A stretch of 64,000 nucleotides of DNA, taken from contig CAYRZH010000002.1 in the NCBI GenBank assembly GCA_964428845.1, forward strand, positions 6,924-70,923, in the 5' to 3' direction. This DNA is from an uncultured Candidatus Saccharibacteria bacterium. Lineage in GTDB: Bacteria; Patescibacteriota; Minisyncoccia; Phycocordibacterales; DATGWK01. A model generated the notes under the pieces. It was not told the origin of the DNA and ran no database searches. It saw nothing but the letters and a program-made list of their open reading frames with translations. This document shows, piece after piece, positions 7,925 through 54,844 of this stretch (position 1 is the first letter of the stretch; every line of letters begins with the position of its first letter). The position numbers were made by a program, and so were the translations under genes.

Positions 7925-8242
7925 CTCCGCGGGTAGGATTCGAACCTACGACCAATCGCTTACATTTGCTCCAAGCTTTCGCTCGGTATGGACTATATCA
8001 TCATCCTTCACCTGGTGGGTGGTTTGGATGTGGGGCGCTTCGTTCTGCTCTTGCAGAACTACTCTCTTGCGAGATAGTCTCTGAACCTTTCCTTTGATAA
8101 TTAATCTGGGGACTTGGCTGCTGATTGCCCACGGCTTTACGTTTGGGTTTCCAGCAATTCACCTCATTTTTCAGCCCGTATTCCTACGGGAAGCTGCGTA
8201 ATTTCGACACAGGCGATCGCTCTACCACTGAGCTACCGCGGA
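7925..8242 (-). tRNA. tRNA-Asn(GUU) interrupted by a group I intron (exons 8242-8209 and 7962-7925)
   Basis: The 5' exon reads TCCGCGG TA GCTC AGTGGTA GAGC G ATCGC CUGU. The 3' exon reads UAA GCGAT TGGTC GTAGG TTCGAAT CCTAC CCGCGGA G. This gives a perfect 7-bp acceptor stem, a CUGUUAA anticodon loop and G73 discriminator (fits Asn); CCA is not encoded. Confidence 0.75.
7963..8208 (-). ncRNA. group I self-splicing intron (246 nt) in the tRNA-Asn anticodon loop
   Basis: The conserved core elements occur in the right order: P AATTGCTGGAAA (8159-8148), Q AATCAGCAGCC (8126-8116), R GTTCAGAGACTATC (8086-8073) and S GATGATATAGTCC (8002-7990). The 5' splice site follows a U, the intron ends in G, and a GCAG guide sequence can pair with exon CUGU (U.G). 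Confidence 0.75.
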
Positions 8243-8310
8243 ATATTATATTTTCTACAAACTTCAAAGAACGCTGAACATCATAGCAAAAACTCCTCTA
8301 TAATAAAAGC

Positions 8311-8544
8311 ATGTACATCAAAATCCGCGCCGTACCATCGGCTAAAAAAGAGCTGTTCGAGCAAGTCTCCAAAGACCACTTTAAGATTACTGTGCGCGAG
8401 AAGCCGAAGAACAACCAGGCCAATCAGCGCATCGTCGCTCTCGTGGCTTCCCACTTCAAGATCGCTTCAGGGAAGGTGAGAATTATTTCAGGCCATCATT
8501 CGCCAAGCAAAATTCTTTCAGTCGATATTGAAACAGTCGGTTAA
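8311..8544 (+). CDS. DUF167 / YggU-family protein
   Basis: MYIKIRAVPSAKKE....ITVREKPKNNQANQRIVALVASHF...GKVRIISG matches the YggU pattern. Confidence 0.65.
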   Translation: MYIKIRAVPSAKKELFEQVSKDHFKITVREKPKNNQANQRIVALVASHFKIASGKVRIISGHHSPSKILSVDIETVG

Positions 8545-8614: not shown

Positions 8615-9037
8615 ATGAAAAAGATTATCAGTAACCATACGAGCATGAAAATAAACATCAAAGCCACAAATATGCATTTGACTCCCGAAATATCAGATTA
8701 TCTAGAAAAGAAGATAAATATGCTCGACAGACTGATCGACCCAGCTGATACAAGCGTTTCCTGCAATATAGAAGTCGGCAAGACAACCAACCACCACAAA
8801 ACAGGAGATGTTTTTAGGACAGAAATAAATTTAACAAAAGATGGCAAATACTTTCGGGCAGTGGCGGAAGAGGAGACACTCAACGCCTCGATTGATGAAG
8901 CGAAAGATGAAATCATGCGAGAGCTTAAGAGCCACAAATCAAAACGCCAGACTCTCATTCGACGTGGTGGTGCGAGAATAAAGGATCTTATAAGGGGTGT
9001 TGGAAATCTGAAGAATTTGAGGCGGTGGAGGAGGTAG
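8615..9037 (+). CDS. hpf: ribosome hibernation promoting factor / RaiA-family protein
   Basis: MKINIKATNMHLTPEISDYLEKKI is a sigma-54 modulation / YfiA family signature; the start may be at 8645. Confidence 0.8.
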   Translation: MKKIISNHTSMKINIKATNMHLTPEISDYLEKKINMLDRLIDPADTSVSCNIEVGKTTNHHKTGDVFRTEINLTKDGKYFRAVAEEETLNASIDEAKDEIMRELKSHKSKRQTLIRRGGARIKDLIRGVGNLKNLRRWRR

Positions 9038-9244
9038 GGGTCTTGAATAGATATCGAAGCAGGACAGTGTCTGTTGTCTGGTTTGGAGATCGATCGAGGA
9101 GAGTCCGCAGGAAGATTTACTCATCCACATCACAGGGTTTTGAATAGACGCCGAGGCGAGACTAGCGAGCGCGACGGCGCGAGCTCGAGGAAAATTTTAG
9201 CAAAAATTTATCCGTGCTCGACGAGGTGTGCTATTCAAAACCCC
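9037..9244. repeat. MITE-like structured repeat, copy 1 (208 bp, terminal inverted repeats GGGGTCTTGAATAG / CTATTCAAAACCCC)
   Basis: It shares three modules with 31199-31496: GAGAGTCCGCAGGAAGATT, GGGGTTTTGAATAGAYGCCGAGGCGRG and TTTATCCGTGCTCGAC..CTATTCAARACCCC. It exactly fills the gap between the convergent hpf and fmt stop codons. Confidence 0.55.
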
Positions 9245-9246
9245 AA

Positions 9247-10101
9247 TCACCTCACTCCCCGCAAGAAATCTTCATAAGACATTTCTTTCTTACCCTCCGG
9301 TATCACTTTAGTTATCTCCAACTTCCCATCCGACATCTCGGCTTCTCGCACCACTACGCGTAGCTTTTTGCCTTTATGATCCGCGAAAAAATATGCGGTC
9401 GGCCAGTCTCTGTACGCGCGGATTTTCTTTAAGTTTTCTTCGGCGTTGCCCAAAAGATCAAGCAACCCATCCTCTTTTTTGATCTTCTTTGTAAATGTGG
9501 CACGAGCGTGGTCCTGCTCCGTTGCTTTTATTTTCCCTTCTACCCAACCTGGAAGTATTTTTACTAGAAGTTTGCCACCTGCTTCTGCAAGAGTGTTTCG
9601 AAGTCGATCTGCGTACGGTGGCCAGTCCGAAATCGCTACTTCCTCCTGCACTACGATGGGCCCGTGATCCACTTTTTCGTCAACGAGCATTATTGTTACC
9701 CCTGTTTTTTCTTCATTTAAAATTGCTGACTGAATAGGTGTGGCGCCGCGAAGCTTGGGGAGAAGGGAAGGGTGAACATTTAAGGTGCCATGCTTGGGAA
9801 TATTTAAAATATTTTTAGGAATAATTTTACCGTACGATGCTACGATAAAAAGGTCGGCCGAGAGCGCTGTAAGTTTTTCAGAAAAATTCTTATCGTTAAG
9901 CTTTTCCGGCTGGAGGCACGCGATAGAGTGCTTTTCTGCCAACATCTTTACCGGAGAGGGAGTGATTACCAATTTTCTTCCTTGTGGTTTGTCTGGAGTT
10001 GTTACAATAAGCGTGGGTAAAAAGCCACCGGCCAGGAGTTTGTCCAAGACGCGACACGAAAACTCCGAACTGCCGAAAAAGACGAAGCCAATTTTACTCA
10101 T
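9247..10101 (-). CDS. fmt: methionyl-tRNA formyltransferase
   Basis: Formyltransferase N-domain motifs (HPSLLPKLRGATPIQSAI) and Fmt C-domain. Confidence 0.85.
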   Translation of the reverse strand: MSKIGFVFFGSSEFSCRVLDKLLAGGFLPTLIVTTPDKPQGRKLVITPSPVKMLAEKHSIACLQPEKLNDKNFSEKLTALSADLFIVASYGKIIPKNILNIPKHGTLNVHPSLLPKLRGATPIQSAILNEEKTGVTIMLVDEKVDHGPIVVQEEVAISDWPPYADRLRNTLAEAGGKLLVKILPGWVEGKIKATEQDHARATFTKKIKKEDGLLDLLGNAEENLKKIRAYRDWPTAYFFADHKGKKLRVVVREAEMSDGKLEITKVIPEGKKEMSYEDFLRGVR

Positions 10102-12512: not shown

Positions 12513-12548
12513 CTTGAATAGTAATCTTAGAGAATATATTTTACAAAC
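12513..12548 (-). promoter_or_regulatory. sigma70-like promoter for priA
   Basis: Minus-sense TTGTAA - 17 nt - TACTAT immediately upstream of the priA ATG. Confidence 0.4.
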
Positions 12549-12550
12549 CT

Positions 12551-12670
12551 AAGACAAAATCCGCACAAGCTACCTCGCCTCGCACGGATATTTTTCTGCT
12601 GAAAAATTCCTCGTGCTCGCGCCGTCGCGCTCGCAAGGCTTCGTCTCGGTACTTGTGCGGATTTTGTCTT
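12551..12670. repeat. 120-bp element with 19-bp perfect terminal inverted repeats (AAGACAAAATCCGCACAAG / CTTGTGCGGATTTTGTCTT) around a GC-rich core
   Basis: Seen directly; the right arm overlaps the murA stop codon. It sits between murA and priA on the minus strand and may be a terminator structure or a MITE. Confidence 0.5.
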
Positions 12671-14180
12671 ATAAATCTCTCAATATCTGAATCTTTGCAC
12701 CAAGGCTATTGAGTCGCTTGATGATATCTTCGTAGCCACGATTGATACTGTAAATATTTCGTAGCACCGAGGTGCCCGAAGCCGCGAGCATACCGATAAG
12801 GATAATTGCGGCGGGGCGAAGGGCTGGCGGGCAAATGACCTCTGCCGCCTTGAGCTTTGTCGGACCGGTGATATAGATGCGATGTGGGTCGGCAAGTAGT
12901 GTGTCGGCGCCGAGTTTGTCGAGCTCTTTGTAGTGTATGGCGCGTTTCTCATAGACCCAGTCGTGTATAAAGGTGGTACCTTTGGCTTGGGTGGCGATCA
13001 CCGCGAAAAATGGAAGATTGTCTATGTTTAGTCCTGGATATGGTCGTGCCTCGATCTTTTCCTCGAGAGCCACGAGTTCGCTTGGTGATGTCTTGATATC
13101 TACTAGATTGGTACGTTCATTTAAGGCTTTATAACTTTTTATAATTTTATATTTAAAACCCATCTTCTCGAGTTTGAGCAGTTCGAGTTCTAGAAAATCA
13201 ATAGGACAGCGGCGAATGGTTATGCTCGACTTGGTCACTGCTGCCACGGCGATAAAAAACATGGACTCGATCGGATCCTCGCTCACATAATACGTGATCG
13301 GCTGGTCTATCACTTCTTTACCATGGATAGTTATTGTCGTTGTGCCTATACCTTCTATCTTCACGCCCAATTTTTCTAAAAAAAAGCAGACTTCTTGGCC
13401 CATGTAGTTGGCAGAAGCAAACTTGATGACAGTTTTTCCCGGGATCTTGGCGGCGGCGATGATGGTATTTTCGGTAACTGTGTCACCAGACTCGTAGAGC
13501 ACGATATAGTTGGGTTTGAGTGCATCTCTCTTCACCTCATAATGTTTGGAGGTGGTTTTTATATCCACCCCAAACTTTTCTAGGGCAAAAACATGAGGCT
13601 GTATAGTCCTAGAACCAAGTCTACACCCGCCAGCCTGGGGGAGTTTAAAACTTTTCGAGTTATGTATTAGGGAGCCGATAAGCATGATAATGCTTCTAGT
13701 TTTCTCTGCGGCTTCTGTGTTTATCTTTTTTATATCAATATTTTTAGGTGGTTTTATCTCGAGATCAGCACCACTCCATTTTGCCGATACGCCCATGCTC
13801 TCGAAGACCTCTATCATCCTGCGAACTTCTTCTATGCGAGGAACATTTTTTAAGATTGTTTTGTTTTTGTTTAAAAGGGAAGCGGCAAGAAGACCCATGG
13901 TGCCGTTTTTTGAAGTTTTTGTGACGATCTCGCCGGAAAGTTTTCTCCCGCCATCTATTTTTACATTTATTGCGCCACGAGAAATATTTAGAATATCCTT
14001 GTTCAACACAGAGCTGATCTTTGAGAGTGTCTCCGTGCTTAGGTTCTGCTCACCCTTCTCGATACGAGCAATGACACTTTGGGTTGTTCCGAGTGCTTTA
14101 CCAAACTCTTTCTGGGTGATACCACGCTCTTCTCGGAGGGTATGTATAAGTTTGCCGATATGTGCGAGCTGACTTTTCAT
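12669..14180 (-). CDS. murA: UDP-N-acetylglucosamine 1-carboxyvinyltransferase with an N-terminal XRE-type helix-turn-helix domain (HTH-MurA fusion)
   Basis: The N-terminal ~75 aa (LIHTLREERGITQKEFGKALGTTQSVIARIEKGEQNLSTETLSKISSVL) is an XRE HTH. It continues in one frame into a MurA N-terminus (KNGTMGLLAASLL..NVP) and a full MurA body. Confidence 0.8.
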   Translation of the reverse strand: MKSQLAHIGKLIHTLREERGITQKEFGKALGTTQSVIARIEKGEQNLSTETLSKISSVLNKDILNISRGAINVKIDGGRKLSGEIVTKTSKNGTMGLLAASLLNKNKTILKNVPRIEEVRRMIEVFESMGVSAKWSGADLEIKPPKNIDIKKINTEAAEKTRSIIMLIGSLIHNSKSFKLPQAGGCRLGSRTIQPHVFALEKFGVDIKTTSKHYEVKRDALKPNYIVLYESGDTVTENTIIAAAKIPGKTVIKFASANYMGQEVCFFLEKLGVKIEGIGTTTITIHGKEVIDQPITYYVSEDPIESMFFIAVAAVTKSSITIRRCPIDFLELELLKLEKMGFKYKIIKSYKALNERTNLVDIKTSPSELVALEEKIEARPYPGLNIDNLPFFAVIATQAKGTTFIHDWVYEKRAIHYKELDKLGADTLLADPHRIYITGPTKLKAAEVICPPALRPAAIILIGMLAASGTSVLRNIYSINRGYEDIIKRLNSLGAKIQILRDL

Positions 14181-14285
14181 ATTTAAAATCAGCATAGCAT
14201 ATATGATATGTTTTGTCTTGTCATTGATGATCTGAATTGTGGATAATGATAAGTAATCTTTTCTAGGCCAAACTTTTTTCATAAA

Positions 14286-19712: not shown

Positions 19713-20018
19713 GTGCTCAAGCCACAAGTCAGAAGGGATTCTGACAACGGTTTCATAAAGGCCGTTGTTGGGAAAGTTCGTGATAATGGCAAAGGTGTAT
19801 TTGCAGTCGCCTACCTACAGAATGGTGAAACCCACCCAAATATTTCTGCTGGAGAAAGCATCACGTTTTCTCTAGACGATTGGGGGGGGAGGCTCCAACC
19901 GCGCGTTGGACAAGTTGTTCTGTTGGGGGATGTTCAGTGTTTTGCCAAGGGATGGCGTGCATTGTCTGCACGCCCCGTCACACTCGAGCCACAAGCCACA
20001 GCCACAAGAAAGGGGTAG
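19713..20018 (+). CDS. hypothetical protein (101 aa), first gene of the GHKL operon
   Basis: GTG at 19713 with an AAGGGA RBS; the C-terminus EPQATATRKG is encoded by the 30-bp direct repeat. Confidence 0.5.
   Translation: MLKPQVRRDSDNGFIKAVVGKVRDNGKGVFAVAYLQNGETHPNISAGESITFSLDDWGGRLQPRVGQVVLLGDVQCFAKGWRALSARPVTLEPQATATRKG
19984..20013 (+). repeat. 30-bp direct repeat DR1 (TCGAGCCACAAGCCACAGCCACAAGAAAGG)
   Basis: Identical copy at 20808-20837; each copy encodes a C-terminal EPQATATRK and supplies the RBS of the next gene. Confidence 0.8.
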
Positions 20019-20020
20019 TT

Positions 20021-20848
20021 ATGCAGAGGAAAGTCAACAGGGGTTCAACGGCAGAATGTCTCAAGGTTTTTTCGGACGAGAATCGCTTCAATGTTACCAA
20101 CATAGCGCGGTGTCGCGTTCGCAATCAAGTCTGTACGCTTCTTAGGATATCAGCCTCGACTGGTCATGCTTGGTTTGCCAGGCAGATTCTGCCGACTGGT
20201 GTAAACATGTTCAAGTTGCAACTTCTTCTCGAAGTTTGTGGCTTTGAAATCAAAGAGCGGCAGAATCTAACTCCTCTGTCTCGCGCTCTTGCTGATCAGG
20301 TGGCCCTGAATGTTCTTTCGGTTGGAAGAGCAGCCTCATTCATTGGGTCAGATGAAGACAAGATTGTCGCGCTCGCGTCTGGTCGTGAAGGAGCCAGTCC
20401 AGATCGGATCTCGAGAACGACCGAATTAGTAGAGATGGAAAAGCCGGCGGCGGAATCAAGAATGGAATTTTTCCGTCAGTCCCTGAAAAAGTTTGGCGTA
20501 GTTTTTGCACAGGAAGCACCTTCGCAGGAGACAGTTCGTGTCGACGCAGATATGCAAGTGCCTACGTCGACTTTGTCACCATCGGCACCACCCTTGGCGA
20601 GCGACACTGATCGGACGCATGCTGTTCATGCGCTCGCGCATCTAGTTTTGGGGATCAAGCACCTTGCCGCAAGAGTGGCCTCCGACGAGTTTACTCCAGC
20701 GGAAAGAGATATGCTTCGTCGTATGACAGGTAATGGCCTTTCCAATGCGATCTTCGATCTTTCGAACATCTTTCACCGCTTGTGCGGTGAGAGAGCTCGG
20801 AGTCGAATCGAGCCACAAGCCACAGCCACAAGAAAGGAGCCGTTGTGA
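20021..20848 (+). CDS. hypothetical protein (275 aa), second gene of the GHKL operon
   Basis: The ATG at 20021 is 2 nt after the gene-1 stop, with an AAAGGGG RBS; the C-terminus EPQATATRKEPL comes from DR2. Confidence 0.55.
   Translation: MQRKVNRGSTAECLKVFSDENRFNVTNIARCRVRNQVCTLLRISASTGHAWFARQILPTGVNMFKLQLLLEVCGFEIKERQNLTPLSRALADQVALNVLSVGRAASFIGSDEDKIVALASGREGASPDRISRTTELVEMEKPAAESRMEFFRQSLKKFGVVFAQEAPSQETVRVDADMQVPTSTLSPSAPPLASDTDRTHAVHALAHLVLGIKHLAARVASDEFTPAERDMLRRMTGNGLSNAIFDLSNIFHRLCGERARSRIEPQATATRKEPL
20808..20837 (+). repeat. 30-bp direct repeat DR2
   Basis: Identical to DR1. Confidence 0.8.
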
Positions 20849-22566
20849 GGAATTTCACACCGCCGTCTACTGCTGGCAGACACACCGCCATTAAGTTCAA
20901 TCAGGGCCAGGCCCTCTTGCATCTTGCTGGCATGTACCCGACTTTGCATGAGGTTATCCTCGAGCTTGTCCAAAACGCCCTAGACAAGGACGTGCGGGCA
21001 ACTCGGATCTGGATCGTTGTCAATCAAAAGACTCGGCACATCGCGGTGCGCGACAATGGTGCCGGAACAACGCTTGATAGATTCAACGAGGCACTTGCGT
21101 CAGTCGCGGAACCAGGCCGCAAGGGCGAGGGGAGTCTGGGACAGTTTGGTATCGGTCTCATTTCTCCTCTTGGTAAGTGTAAAGAGTTTGTTTTTCTCTC
21201 CTGCCCAGCACCTCATATGTACGGGTTCCAGGAGTGGACGTTTAGAACCGATCACATCACTGCGCAAAGACAGGATCTGATGATCCCTCTACGAGCTCGA
21301 GATGATCTCACGCTTCAGGATAGACCTCCTCCAGGAAAAACCCGGCTCCAGTGGCGATCGGAAATGAGCCTTACTGGTATCACGACTGATGGTGTCGTTG
21401 GTCAGATTTCCATGGACGCTCTTATCGGGGGTATTCAAGACCGCTATGCCACCGTTATGCGGCGTAACAAGACTATCATTTCGGTGGAGATCACCGACAA
21501 GGATGGTAGTGTCGAACGGCGGCCCAATGTGACGGCTTCAGACTTTCGAGGTCGTGCTCTCGAAGAGTGGACGTATGTAGAGCCCTCTGCTGGCAGGACC
21601 ACATTTCGTTTGTTTGTTGCTCCCAAGTCCAAAACGGGACGAAGCGGGCGGGTGGTTGTGGGAATCATGGGGAATGATTTCAGAATTCCACTCCACTATG
21701 TCGTCCGATCTGCGACCGCTCTTCTTGGCGAAGAAGTGGTTACGGCACTGTCGTCTGGTCTTTTCGAGGGAGAAATCATCTCTGAGTGTGCCAAACTGCA
21801 CCCAAGTCGCAGAAGTCTTGTCAAAGACGATGCTTTCATTGGCTTCTGTTTGGCTATCGAGGAGTGGTATAACCAAGTTGGGTCAAAGTGTGTTGATGAG
21901 ATTCGTCAGTCCCGACAGGAACAACGGTTCCAGGATCTGGGACTGCGATCGATGAAGGTGATCGAGGGTCTGCTCAATAATCCCGCGCTTTCATCGCTCC
22001 GGGCGGTTATCGGTTCTTTTGGCCGAGGCACGGTCAGTAGTGCTCACCATGACCCCACGAAGAAGGTCGTAGGTGAGCAGGAAAAGCCAGCCTTGTCGGT
22101 TCAGGGAGTCTTTGCCACGCCGAGTGGAGAAGACCCGGAAGATCCTGACGACGGCGGAGGATCTTCTGCCGAGAAGCCGCCTCGGCCGCCTCTCACTGTC
22201 ACAGGTCCTAGAGGTCCAAGACGGAAGATCGTGAGAAGCTCGAGCTTCGGCTTGCAGTTTGCTCATGAGCCAGTTGAGGGTTCTCCCGACTTGTGGAATC
22301 TTGACACAAGAGAGGGTGTACTGACCTTCAACATCCGGCATCCACTCTGGGTTGCCTGTGATGTGAGGGACGTTCCACTCATGAAACTGCAGGAGTGGGT
22401 GGCGATACAGGCGTTGACGCTTGAGATGATGCCTCCGGCCCTGCGCGTTCCACAACGGCTTATTTTGGATGAGATCACCGTTTCGATGGTTTCCTGGATT
22501 CTTGGTGCTGACAAAGCGAGGGGTTCTATCCCGAACCCGAAGGGTAAGAGGAGACCCTCGCAGTAA
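20845..22566 (+). CDS. GHKL/Bergerat-fold ATPase (HATPase_c_3; MORC/Hsp90/MutL-like N-domain) with a ~440-aa uncharacterised C-terminal region
   Basis: N-box ELVQNALDKD, G1 box VRDNGAGT and G2 box GSLGQFGIGLIS are present in canonical spacing. A GTG start overlaps the gene-2 stop (GTGA) and is preceded by AAAGGAG. Confidence 0.65.
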   Translation: MRNFTPPSTAGRHTAIKFNQGQALLHLAGMYPTLHEVILELVQNALDKDVRATRIWIVVNQKTRHIAVRDNGAGTTLDRFNEALASVAEPGRKGEGSLGQFGIGLISPLGKCKEFVFLSCPAPHMYGFQEWTFRTDHITAQRQDLMIPLRARDDLTLQDRPPPGKTRLQWRSEMSLTGITTDGVVGQISMDALIGGIQDRYATVMRRNKTIISVEITDKDGSVERRPNVTASDFRGRALEEWTYVEPSAGRTTFRLFVAPKSKTGRSGRVVVGIMGNDFRIPLHYVVRSATALLGEEVVTALSSGLFEGEIISECAKLHPSRRSLVKDDAFIGFCLAIEEWYNQVGSKCVDEIRQSRQEQRFQDLGLRSMKVIEGLLNNPALSSLRAVIGSFGRGTVSSAHHDPTKKVVGEQEKPALSVQGVFATPSGEDPEDPDDGGGSSAEKPPRPPLTVTGPRGPRRKIVRSSSFGLQFAHEPVEGSPDLWNLDTREGVLTFNIRHPLWVACDVRDVPLMKLQEWVAIQALTLEMMPPALRVPQRLILDEITVSMVSWILGADKARGSIPNPKGKRRPSQ

Positions 22567-30301: not shown

Positions 30302-30453
30302 TTCTTCACTCCCTTTCGTTATGGTGGTGTGATGATTGTTTGCAACAAACACAATTCTGCCAACATACTACATATGGCTAAATCATCAGTCAAGATAGCC
30401 CAATAGTTCAATTGCTTAGGCTATTTGAGTAATACACTGTTTCCCAAAATGAA

Positions 30454-30480
30454 ACCCCCACAGTCTCCCGTGGGGGTTTT
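30454..30480. terminator. intrinsic terminator
   Basis: ACCCCCAC agtctccc GTGGGGGT hairpin followed by TTTGAAT; it shares GGGGTTTTGAAT with the MITE-like repeat end. Confidence 0.5.
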
Positions 30481-30505
30481 GAATGTGAACGTAGAACTCG
30501 TGAAC

Positions 30506-31066
30506 TCAGCAGGCCGCGAGCGATCCGCTGCGGGGGGGCTGGGGACCAACCCCGACCGCTTCCGTACCGACGGGTGGTCTGTTGTTGGCAACGATGGATC
30601 CCGGTAGACCCTCAACATACGCCAGTGATTCGGTAGTAGTCCGAGTGACACCGGCGAAACCTCCCTGGAGCACCACTTTCGTGGTGACGATGTATCGGTA
30701 CTTCCCAGGTGTCAGATTCAGGAAAACCTCGTCCTCCCGACCATGAATGGAGATATCCCGTAGCGGCCGCACGACGCGCAACCGGCCGTTTTGTACGACG
30801 AGCATGTACTCAACATCGTCGTGACGAAAGCCCCCCCTCACCTCGAGGATGTCGCCTGGCTCGAACACCTTACTGATGAACATGGGGCAGCCGATCCTGG
30901 CCTTGTAGGAATCTCGATCTCGCACAGTGGCGGCGATAAAGGAACACACAATGATGAGCACGATGAGCACCAGGACAATTGCGGCTGCCTCCCCAAAGGT
31001 GAACCAGGATCCTCCCGAGCTCATCTGGTCCGACGTCTGCGCCAACACGAGACTGAAATTGAACAC
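30506..31066 (-). CDS. hypothetical membrane-anchored protein (186 aa), GC-rich paralog of 29888-30301
   Basis: GTG at 31066 with an AAAGGAG RBS; TM helix; the motif LTPGKYRYIV parallels LEPGTYFIY of the neighbouring gene; about 58% GC. Confidence 0.5.
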   Translation of the reverse strand: MFNFSLVLAQTSDQMSSGGSWFTFGEAAAIVLVLIVLIIVCSFIAATVRDRDSYKARIGCPMFISKVFEPGDILEVRGGFRHDDVEYMLVVQNGRLRVVRPLRDISIHGREDEVFLNLTPGKYRYIVTTKVVLQGGFAGVTRTTTESLAYVEGLPGSIVANNRPPVGTEAVGVGPQPPRSGSLAAC

Positions 31067-31198
31067 GTTCTTCTCCTTTTTCCAAAGTGCTTGGTTGCGG
31101 TGCCCGACATAGGCAACCGATTATTTCCAAGGTTGATTATAGCACGCTTGATAGCATCTTGTCAATGAGTAAAACAAAATCCCCAGCAAACTTGCCAC

Positions 31199-31496
31199 GA
31201 GAGAGTCCGCAGGAAGATTCGGTATCTACATCATGGGGTTTTGAATAGATGCCGAGGCGGGATGATGTCTGGCCACAGAGATCGTTCGAGGAGAGTCCGC
31301 AGGAAGATTTGCATGGTCTGTCAAGTTGGCCAGATATCTAGAGTAGGTTCTCTTATATAGATTACCTGGCCAACTTTACAGAAATCTTCCGAGGATTAGG
31401 AAATTTGTCCGCTGGGACAAATTTCCGCTCTCCGAGAGCGATACTCTGTGGCGGACATGTTTATCCGTGCTCGACAGGCTGTCTATTCAAGACCCC
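31199..31496. repeat. MITE-like structured repeat, copy 2 (~298 bp)
   Basis: Contains the same three modules as copy 1. Nested perfect inverted repeats (CAAGTTGGCCAG/CTGGCCAACTT; GGCCACAGAG/CTCTGTGGC) point to a long imperfect hairpin. Confidence 0.55.
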
Positions 31497-31622
31497 TTTG
31501 GGAGGGGCAATGCTTGCTGGGGGTTTGTTGTGGCCGGTCTTTCTGTGGATAACAGTGTATTCTTGTGGGATAAAGTGGTATATACTTTGTATCAAGTGGG
31601 TGAAGGTGGTAAACTTTGATTC

Positions 31623-36357: not shown

Positions 36358-36438
36358 AATTTGTGTAGTGTATTGCGTATCGCGCGCATATTTGTCTTCG
36401 TGGCTAATTTATTTTTATATGCACTGCGCGCCTTTAGC

Positions 36439-36510
36439 GGCCCTATCGTCTAACGGTTAGGACGGGAGCTTCTCAAGCTCCAAATCCGGGTTCGATTCCC
36501 GGTAGGGTCA
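36439..36510 (+). tRNA. tRNA-Glu(CUC)
   Basis: GGCCCTA TC GTCT AACGGTTA GGAC G GGAGC TTCTCAA GCTCC AAAT CCGGG TTCGATT CCCGG TAGGGTC A; a Glu-like D-arm. Confidence 0.75.
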
Positions 36511-36650
36511 GAGATTTGAGCGGGCCGAGAAGCTCTGGCCCTAAGCGGGCCGACTTCTCGGCCCGCGTCCGGGAATCGAACGCCGGAGCGATGTTTCGCC
36601 AGTAGGCGAAACCGCGAGGCGGTGCCCAGCCCGAGGCTAGGGCGGCGAGC
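36511..36650. other. GC-rich hairpin-dense segment following the tRNA (includes an inverted T-arm-like fragment)
   Basis: Perfect hairpins GCGGGCCGA cttc TCGGCCCGC (36546-36567) and GTTTCGCC agta GGCGAAAC (36592-36615); GTCCGGGAATCGAACGCC is an inverted partial copy of the tRNA T-arm. Confidence 0.4.
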
Positions 36651-36681
36651 CGAGAGGCGCGGGAGATTCCCGGTAGGGTAA
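36651..36681 (+). repeat. direct repeat DR-a containing a copy of the tRNA-Glu 3' end (att-like)
   Basis: CGAGAGGCGCGGGAGATTCCCGGTAGGGTAA; 14 of its bases (ATTCCCGGTAGGGT) match the tRNA 3' end. Confidence 0.6.
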
Positions 36682-36760
36682 TAGATGCTAAATATTAATT
36701 TGATCATTTGTGTTATATTCTCATAAGAAACACCTTAGCCATTACAGGAGGGAGTAATAA

Positions 36761-37060
36761 ATGAATATTATCAGAGCATGCTGTTTACTTTACCTTTGTA
36801 TTTGTATACCTTCAGACCTAAACCCCATGCTATGGATTGCAGGTAAATTCCTGGAGAGAAATCCCTTGCTACTCTCTATACATCTCTTGCTGTACCTGGC
36901 TTCAGGGATTTTCTTTTGTATAACAATTGGCTATGAAAAAAGAACTGCCAGAAAAAGAATAAGGCTAGGACTCTGTCCTGCGTGTGGTTATGATTGGCGA
37001 GTCACACCTCGAAGATGTCCTGAATGCGGAAGAATTCCGAGGCGCTACAGAATTGTCTGA
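36761..37060 (+). CDS. hypothetical small membrane protein with a C-terminal CxxC..CxxC zinc ribbon (99 aa)
   Basis: ATG preceded by a GGAGGGAG RBS; two TM helices; C-terminal CPACGYDWRVTPRRCPECG; located between DR-a and DR-b. Confidence 0.5.
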   Translation: MNIIRACCLLYLCICIPSDLNPMLWIAGKFLERNPLLLSIHLLLYLASGIFFCITIGYEKRTARKRIRLGLCPACGYDWRVTPRRCPECGRIPRRYRIV

Positions 37061-37073
37061 GCGTCTTTTTAGT

Positions 37074-37104
37074 CGAGAGGCGCGGGAGATTCCCGGTAGG
37101 GTCA
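37074..37104 (+). repeat. direct repeat DR-b (second copy, 30/31 identical to DR-a)
   Basis: CGAGAGGCGCGGGAGATTCCCGGTAGGGTCA; 17 nt are identical to the tRNA-Glu 3' end including the discriminator. Confidence 0.6.
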
Positions 37105-37149
37105 TGCGAGCAAAAAATCACGGCCTTTTGCTCATATTAGATAAAACAA

Positions 37150-54621: not shown

Positions 54622-54648
54622 AAAACTAGAAGCAACTAATTAAACTTA

Positions 54649-54675
54649 AAACCCCGCATGTGCGGGGTTTTAAGT
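54649..54675. terminator. bidirectional intrinsic terminator
   Basis: AAAACCCCGCA tgt GCGGGGTTTT. Confidence 0.7.
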
Positions 54676-54844
54676 TTGTAAAGAGAGTGATTTTTATAAG
54701 TATTTTTTTATACAATCAAGCAAAATAAACAGATTGACACTGGTGGGGAAGGGGAGTAAATTCAAATGCGGAATCGAACATTGAATTTATAAAAAGTAAT
54801 CAAAAATACACACCGGGCTCTTGCCCAGAAAGGTTGAGTGAGAA

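Follow-up and report, generated by a model that had tools for sequence, protein, structure and literature searches.

A modular family of small inverted-repeat elements, probably miniature transposable elements, in a Paceibacteria genome

The working definition of a miniature inverted-repeat transposable element (MITE) used here is taken from the literature (PMC3049150). Two other kinds of small bacterial repeat are relevant for comparison. The BOX repeats of Streptococcus are built as boxA-boxB(n)-boxC, and in S. suis either boxA/C or boxE/F surround the same boxB; a whole BOX folds as a stem-loop, and its internal module folds independently (PMC3049150). SPRITE repeats are terminator-like and lie close to the 3' ends of genes (PMC3049150). 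Here we describe a family of short structured repeats in a 64,000-nt stretch of contig CAYRZH010000002.1 (positions 6,924 to 70,923 of the forward strand, called the window below), which belongs to a Paceibacteria genome of the candidate phyla radiation (CPR). Copy counts refer to this 64-kb window, where three loci carry the family: copy 1 between hpf and fmt (9037-9244), copy 2 between an open reading frame (ORF) and mraZ (31170-31531), and copy 3 between murA and priA (12550-12671). These repeats are probably non-autonomous MITEs. A MITE-like character had been proposed for copy 1 in the original prediction, made from the letters alone, and it gains from four observations: the enlarged sites in the window, a 9-bp target-site duplication at a homologous element (locus L164) together with the corresponding empty site (L168), a second filled/empty pair, and the spread of homologues over non-orthologous positions.

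The gene order DUF167-hpf, convergent with fmt-def-priA-murA, is retained in contigs of the closest relatives, and the window was compared with the syntenic loci L082, L083, L160, L161 and L170, whose proteins are 63-72% identical to those of the window host. The hpf/fmt junction is 209 nt long in the window, against 9 nt in L082, 14 nt in L083, 2 nt in L160 and 10 nt in L161. Similarly, the 159 nt that separate murA and priA correspond to 4 nt in L083 and to 46 nt in L160, and L170 has 150 nt at the divergent orf/mraZ junction, which measures 556 nt in the window. Each of the three window sites is therefore enlarged by approximately the length of the element. At hpf/fmt and murA/priA, conservation reaches the very last residue at the C-terminal ends of Hpf, Fmt and MurA and at the N-terminal end of PriA, and the conserved mraZ promoter/operator block begins ~13 nt past the end of copy 2. 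Since the junctions are short in relatives and the gene ends are intact, the three window copies are clean insertions. In more distant relatives, hpf and fmt have overlapping stops or are separated by a plain bidirectional terminator. The latter arrangement lends something to a rival explanation, in which the repeats are cis-acting structured RNAs (terminators, stabilisers of 3' untranslated regions (UTRs) or regulatory hairpins) selected at gene ends; copies 1 and 3 also adjoin stop codons. Against it, the orthologous junctions of all syntenic relatives are without the element, and copy 2 has divergent promoters on its two sides and precedes the conserved mraZ promoter block. The host fmt is at most 60-66% identical to any record, its best matches being Lloydbacteria and Paceibacterota metagenome-assembled genomes.

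Signs of movement come from the homologues. An element with the conserved core of the family lies between serS and an ftsQ-like gene in L164, and also in L163, L165 and L166. The L164 gap of 177 nt reads C-ATTATTTAC, then a 139-nt element with imperfect 17-bp terminal inverted repeats (TIRs), then ATTATTTAC-TAATCGG... In L168, whose ParB is 79% identical to that of L033, the same gap is only 32 nt long and reads TTATTTACTAATTG...; once the A of the serS stop is included, it has a single occurrence of the 9-mer ATTATTTAC. Random placements given the same positional slack reach a flank match of 9/9 in 0.03% of cases. The second filled/empty pair is in the def-parB spacer, which contains a 111-nt element in L033 and L167 only and is empty in L163, L164 and L166; outside the element, L033 aligns with these three at 79%. 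The two pairs show transposition within the family. Because a single-copy target has been duplicated as by a staggered cut, DDE-type transposition is favoured over movement of the REP/RAYT or IS200/IS605 type. Palindromic elements moved by HUH enzymes make no target duplication. A repetitive extragenic palindrome (REP or REPIN) or a palindrome derived from the insertion sequences (ISs) IS200/IS605, moved as single-stranded DNA (ssDNA) by such an enzyme (a REP-associated tyrosine transposase, RAYT, or TnpA), would agree with the lack of an intact duplication at the window copies, and with hairpins that are conserved in structure more than in sequence, as expected for recognition of folded ssDNA. 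However, this origin is highly improbable given the perfect 9-bp duplication of L164, single-copy in the empty site, the left flanks without a common 4-5-nt target motif, and the absence of an HUH gene among the scanned window ORFs.

The divergent def-parB spacer is of some interest in itself (L033 8400-8812; L164 3686-4206). It is ~400-500 nt long and 79% conserved between lineages whose ParBs are 84% identical. It has no Rfam match, and may represent a replication origin region or a non-coding RNA not yet described.

Copy 1 starts with the TIR GGGGTCTTGAATAG at 9037-9050 and ends with its inverted partner TIR', CTATTCAAAACCCC, at 9231-9244. It lies in the stop-to-stop gap between hpf (Ribosomal_S30AE; ORF 8615-9037, stop TAG at 9035-9037) and the convergent fmt (Formyl_trans_N/C; ORF 9247-10101, stop at 9247-9249). 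A 208-bp element filling this gap at 9037-9244 had been predicted, and both its coordinates and its sequences hold. Its description as one TIR-bounded element holds for the end repeats, but it is not a single hairpin: the stretch that pairs with 9231-9244 is a third TIR copy, located internally at 9134-9147, and copy 1 therefore consists of a 5' partial unit (9037-9133, + strand) followed by a complete 111-nt hairpin unit (9134-9244, + strand). The partial unit comprises the TIR GGGGTCTTGAATAG, a 5'-arm module that ends in the 19-mer GAGAGTCCGCAGGAAGATT (9099-9117), and a 16-nt linker (9118-9133), with no matching 3' arm. It represents one arm, the 5' one, of a longer variant, with the linker attached and the opposite arm missing. 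In the complete unit, the TIR at 9134-9147 is followed by stem P2, hairpin H1 (9169-9180, loop ACGG), hairpin H2 (9189-9213, loop AGCA) and TIR' at 9231-9244. This unit folds at -50 kcal/mol (z = -6.2) and scores 85 bits with our covariance model R1. The tails of hpf and fmt seem to form an outer stem, but this was discarded as native coding sequence conserved in relatives.

Where two copies had been predicted in the window, there is a third, previously overlooked, between the murA stop and the priA start. Copy 3 (12550-12671, core on the - strand) is 122 nt long. An inverted-repeat search reveals a perfect closing stem of 20 bp (TAAGACAAAATCCGCACAAG / CTTGTGCGGATTTTGTCTTA) around the same two-hairpin core, which is 82% identical to 9151-9227 of copy 1 on the opposite strand. 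The murA stop codon TAA provides the first three stem bases on the minus strand. The whole folds at -63.1 kcal/mol (z = -8.8), with an R1 score of 89.7 bits. Its closing stem TAAGACAAAATCCGCA is homologous to the outer stem P0 of copy 2, TAAAACAAAATCCCCA, and the P0 motif TAARACAAAATCCSCA matches in these two copies only when the window is scanned. Next to copy 3 is a candidate degenerate 9-bp target-site duplication, TTACAAACC at 12541-12549 versus TTATAAATC at 12669-12677. On this parse 12669-12671 belong to the duplication and the element ends at 12668. The flanks match at 7/9 positions and both differences are transitions; as 7/9 is reached in 16% of random placements, the match is suggestive only. 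An isolated TIR fragment, CTTGAATAG (12513-12521, + strand), lies in the spacer immediately before the priA start, at a distance of 29 nt from copy 3. The motif has three matches in the window, two of them inside known TIRs, with 0.8 expected by chance, and the fragment may be a remnant of a TIR-type element. The neighbouring MurA (12669-14282, - strand) has an N-terminal XRE-type helix-turn-helix (HTH_3 + EPSP_synthase). The same fusion occurs in L083, and is absent in L160 and L161, where the protein has 439-440 aa.

A second copy had been placed at 31199-31496. It is indeed present but extends further, as the outer stem P0 (31170-31196 with 31506-31531) widens it to 31170-31531 (+ strand). 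Copy 2 is thus a composite nested hairpin of ~360 nt, folding at -182.8 kcal/mol (z = -12.3). From the outside inward, it is made up of P0, a solo 5'-arm tail (GAGAGTCCGCAGGAAGATT) with its linker (31199-31234, + strand; equivalent to the copy 1 junction 9099-9133), a TIR-bounded long-arm unit (31235-31496, + strand) that runs GGGGTTTTGAATAGA ... TCTATTCAAGACCCC, and apical hairpins at 31317-31382 and 31399-31426. The core hairpins are absent, and in their place are the apical hairpins and long arms, 31266-31316 with 31383-31457, that are ~85% complementary. Mismatches in these arms number five G·T and three A·C, without strand bias, and here the strand-bias test is uninformative; such an unbiased pattern is what a decaying DNA palindrome would be expected to show.

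Copy 2 sits between divergent promoters, and no promoter-like site is directed into it. On its left, a perfect extended sigma-70 promoter (TTGACA-18-TATAAT with TG; 31136-31165, - strand) faces left and abuts the copy. On its other side, the mraZ upstream block (31544-31622, + strand) has a DnaA-box-like TGTGGATAA and repeated GTGGG, and is conserved in L170. Small ORFs were rejected as element content, a Shine-Dalgarno-like AGGAAG followed by ATG being found in copy 2 only. A candidate parent element at 30473-31496 was rejected as well. Its left 'TIR', a match with two mismatches at 30473, arises because the 3' half (GGGGGTTTTGAATGT) of the ordinary terminator at 30453-30486 mimics the TIR. 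The ORF enclosed in this candidate has no Pfam match and resembles a membrane protein. Ordinary bidirectional terminator palindromes of this kind, for example AAACTTAAAACCCCGCA-TG-TGCGGGGTTTTAAGTTT, occur at 54642-54677 and 30453-30486.

The repeats are far too frequent to be accidental. Seven window matches to the TIR pattern are found at up to two mismatches, versus 0.99 expected, and 0/100 shuffles reach seven; the 19-mer GAGAGTCCGCAGGAAGATT occurs exactly three times, versus 0.01 expected. Both counts are far over expectation, so the repeats are not due to chance. The sharing of three modules between copies 1 and 2, part of the original prediction, is borne out by BLAST of the copies against the window: positions 1-82 of copy 1 align with 31235-31310 (77% identity), positions 63-125, a 63-nt junction where the arm tail meets the linker and the following TIR, with 31201-31262 (86%), and positions 171-208 with 31460-31496 (87%). 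Modular composition with a variable interior, likewise proposed, is also evident, as the core is swapped among closing stems and replaced by long arms in copy 2. In a unit, the closing stem (the TIRs) leads to stem P2, and P2 to the two-hairpin core H1 + H2. This core is found in three closing stems, of TIR type (copy 1), P0 type (copy 3) and L033 type. The family is modular: differing closing stems, a shared P2, and either the core or long palindromic arms appear in varying combinations, and units stand adjacent to or nested within one another. The TIRs measure 14-16 bp in copies 1 and 2, a perfect 20 bp in copy 3 and an imperfect 17 bp in L164, and their sequence varies between subfamilies. 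L033 and L164 have homologous closing stems, and P2 of L164 (GTCGAGGCGGGCTG) resembles that of window copy 2 (GCCGAGGCGGGATG). Unit lengths are 111, 122, 208 and ~360 nt. In six-frame lists, the ORFs that overlap the elements are short and extend into the flanks. The elements are thus small and non-coding, have TIRs and dispersed copies, and occur in filled and empty sites, all of which are MITE features.

Profile and covariance-model (R1) scans of fetched Paceibacteria loci recover the core in L033 (Parcubacteria GW2011_GWA1_40_21), L167, L086 and L163-L166, and more distantly in L010 and L028. The R1 core scores are 60-90 bits for window copies 1 and 3, L033, L086, L010, L028 and L167, and 31 bits for L164. 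All homologous core sites are non-orthologous to the window sites. Hence, in place of just two copies kept as conserved 3'-UTR structures, which would have spoken for an RNA in the terms of the original prediction, there are a third copy and homologues at non-orthologous sites. H1 has 4-5 bp and an RCGG or AAAG loop; the A/U-rich H2 has ~10 bp, an ANCA loop and one A that is bulged.

This core provides arguments for the cis-acting RNA. RNAalifold and pair counting give pairing in 97.9% of cells across 7 sequences, and 11/14 core pairs have changed on both sides, a level matched by 0/500 shuffles and with slid controls far lower. These figures should be read with the knowledge that the second alignment was fitted to the model and that the sequences are mutually related. 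Furthermore, the non-Watson-Crick core pairs are three G·U on the core-sense strand, with no A·C, the core-sense strand is always the better folder, and a 5' A-tract and a 3' U-tract flank the closing stems of copy 3, copy 2 P0, L033 and L086, as in bidirectional terminators. Hairpin-templated correction in quasi-palindromes is, however, an established mechanism that also produces compensatory changes, without any RNA function. Orientation and context are mixed, the L086 and L164 elements being antisense to both neighbours. The TIR stems of copies 1 and 2 are without a U-tail, and a consensus terminator scan, which accepts loops of 3-8 nt only, is negative in the elements. Since the element is absent from orthologous sites, is found in mixed orientation and is negative in terminator scans, any terminator or processing effect is treated as secondary at most, and not as what gave rise to the element. 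The original prediction had offered, as its alternative, a structured RNA doubling as a bidirectional terminator. With the element missing from orthologous junctions, its orientation mixed, and a homologue that has both a target-site duplication and an empty site, such an origin is not upheld, and selection as a cis-acting RNA is an unlikely account of the family.

A further possibility is that the repeats are genes for trans-acting small RNAs, or a new class of structured non-coding RNA, duplicated around the genome. The two-hairpin core and its loops (ANCA; RCGG) are conserved across several Paceibacteria genomes, and no copy matches an Rfam family, so such an RNA would be new. There are also modules beside tRNA-Asn genes in L010 (11630-11925) and L028 (12298-12440 and 14470-14625), with core-like hairpins and an extra hairpin whose 11-nt loop GAATACTTGGA is invariant. 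However, no promoter-like site is directed into the copies, locations are non-syntenic between relatives, copy 2 is without core hairpins altogether, near-perfect stems of 14-20 bp better suit DNA palindromes or RNase III substrates, and signatures of transposition are present. We therefore regard small RNA genes as quite improbable. The L010/L028 modules have covarying stems, adjoin partial tRNA-Asn duplications as well as the tRNA-Asn genes, and have no Rfam match; they may be an undescribed structured RNA or an arm of a tRNA-targeting element.

Returning to the MITE interpretation, a tentative extension of it, for which we see only a modest chance, is that the core is a functional structured module (RNA or folded ssDNA) carried by the MITE and selected across Paceibacteria genera. 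If so, it may bind a host or transposition factor, or be a portable RNA 3'-end or regulatory structure. The L010/L028 tRNA-Asn modules would then be its source gene or a sister family, and the core would be an undescribed structured nucleic-acid motif spreading by transposition in CPR bacteria.

Searches of broader collections returned nothing comparable. No Rfam 15 family matches any copy at gathering score, and at E <=10 only microRNA/snoRNA noise appears; an Rfam search of the homologous loci gives no match either. The exact 19-mer has no match in 185,579 species genomes and a single chance match in JGI metagenomes, inside a histidine-kinase gene. Scans of viral contigs with the TIR, the TIR pair and the core motif give nothing or GC-rich chance matches, and BLAST against phages and plasmids gives no match. 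Several candidate identities were also set aside. A retron is excluded by the lack of a reverse transcriptase gene beside any copy, the template/variable repeat of a diversity-generating retroelement by copy differences that are not adenine-specific, an integron attC site by the lack of R'/R'' motifs, and a Tn3-derived inverted-repeat miniature element (TIME) by the lack of a 5-bp duplication. Group II intron domain V was rejected since neither copy 3 nor L033 conserves the lower helix. For RNase P CR-I, GAGGAGAGUCCGCAG is similar, yet there is no Rfam RNase P match even at E = 10. Weak covariance-model matches at 21249-21323 and 8396-8475 are inside coding regions and were discarded.

Chance similarity or an artefact of assembly or amplification (chimeric palindromes in a metagenome-assembled genome) must also be considered, as amplification chimeras can yield long near-perfect hairpins and the source contig is metagenome-derived. 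Nevertheless, the contig holds three diverged copies, homologues are present in independent assemblies of different studies (L033, L086, L163-L167), the hairpins have compensatory changes, and the flanking genes are intact. Such an origin is extremely improbable.

Several observations do weigh against the MITE interpretation. Target-site duplications, which the original prediction had suggested looking for, are found only in part: L164 has one (9/9, single-copy in L168), but none is intact at the window copies, where the best 9-mer matches are 3/9, 5/9 and 7/9 for copies 1, 2 and 3, respectively. As to a parent transposon, also suggested, no full-length element is seen in the 64-kb window, no transposase was detected among 19 window ORFs scanned with Pfam, and scans of public collections with the 19-mer and the TIRs give no real partner IS. 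The closest relatives are only 63-72% identical, with no strictly orthologous empty site for the window copies. Finally, the interior is better conserved than the termini, and the hairpins have compensatory changes, which is unusual for a purely selfish MITE.

Taking the repeats as MITEs, a course of events can be proposed. The window copies would owe their movement to a DDE-type transposase acting in trans, whose gene lies elsewhere or has meanwhile been lost. A possible parent element would end in the family termini, GGGGTYTTGAATAG or TAAGACAAAATCC. The composites (copies 1 and 2) may have arisen by nested or adjacent insertion followed by deletion or recombination. If transcribed, the long hairpins are probably 3'-end structures or RNase III targets, as a side effect.

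Three other regions of the window deserve mention. A group I intron (Rfam RF00028, 82 bits) is located at 7970-8315 (- strand), with a tRNA-like 5' half (GCGGUAGCUCAGUGGUAGAGCGAUCGCCUGUG...) inside the matched stretch, which looks like an intron-split tRNA gene uncalled by ARAGORN. In the tRNA-Glu (CUC) region (36439-37120), an inverted partial copy of the T-arm is found at 36569-36581 (versus 36490-36502), and three direct copies of the tRNA-Glu 3' end, at 36494, 36665 and 37088, bracket segments of ~175 and ~420 nt. These repeats look like scars of small integrative elements. The fold of 36430-36700 has z = -8.3 and contains an H2-like hairpin (GUUUCGCC-AGUA-GGCGAAAC). At 19713-22566, a 40-nt direct repeat (90% identical; 19984-20023 and 20808-20847) occurs just upstream of two consecutive ORFs, the second of which encodes a 573-aa GHKL-type ATPase (HATPase_c_3). 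This pair of genes may be foreign.

The genomes of CPR bacteria (Patescibacteria) are very small and leave little room between genes. Within such a genome, MITE insertion has taken place between stops that are 2-14 nt apart in relatives and inside the conserved housekeeping operon murA-priA-def-fmt, and the genes are undamaged. The target duplication and empty site document active transposition in a CPR lineage, and a full-text literature search found no report of interspersed repeats in CPR bacteria. In practice, the elements could be used as a strain-typing marker, and they are a warning for the assembly of these metagenome-derived genomes. They also present a conserved structured core; the picture of how MITEs work is unchanged.

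How does the family compare with known systems? A 9-bp target duplication is consistent with the IS903 group (IS5 family), with IS4, and with IS1 or IS256 types, and IS903 itself produces a 9-bp duplication. The IS903 end GGCTTTGTTGAATAAATC, verified in plasmid records annotated with the IS903B transposase, and the element TIR GGGGTYTTGAATAGAT have in common TTGAATA.AT and a GG start; with so many IS families in existence, a match at 11/16 positions is not significant. The 19 window ORFs (Pfam) include no IS5-family transposase, and the IS903 group is a lead only as to the source of the transposase.

As in SPRITE, an A-tract, a GC-rich stem and a U-tract are found in the closing stems of copy 3, copy 2 P0, L033 and L086, near gene 3' ends. 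The stem here, however, encloses not a short loop but a structured interior of 80-300 nt, and no U-tail follows the TIR stems of copies 1 and 2. With the bacterial MITEs (Correia of Neisseria, Nezha of cyanobacteria, RUP of S. pneumoniae) the elements share a small size, non-coding content, intergenic location and TIRs, as well as a highly paired fold, dispersed copies, filled and empty sites, and a target-site duplication, here in the L164 homologue. In contrast to these MITEs, the TIRs are non-uniform, the core is the best conserved part, no partner IS was found in the public collections scanned, the window copies are without intact duplications, and the elements lack AT-richness, with a G+C content of 49-57% in the cores of the window, L033 and L086. 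Closest in construction are the BOX-type repeats, in which the same internal module is also found within different terminal modules. The host phylum differs, the internal module is not in tandem here, and a 9-bp duplication is documented; no homology is claimed, and the likeness is one of build only.

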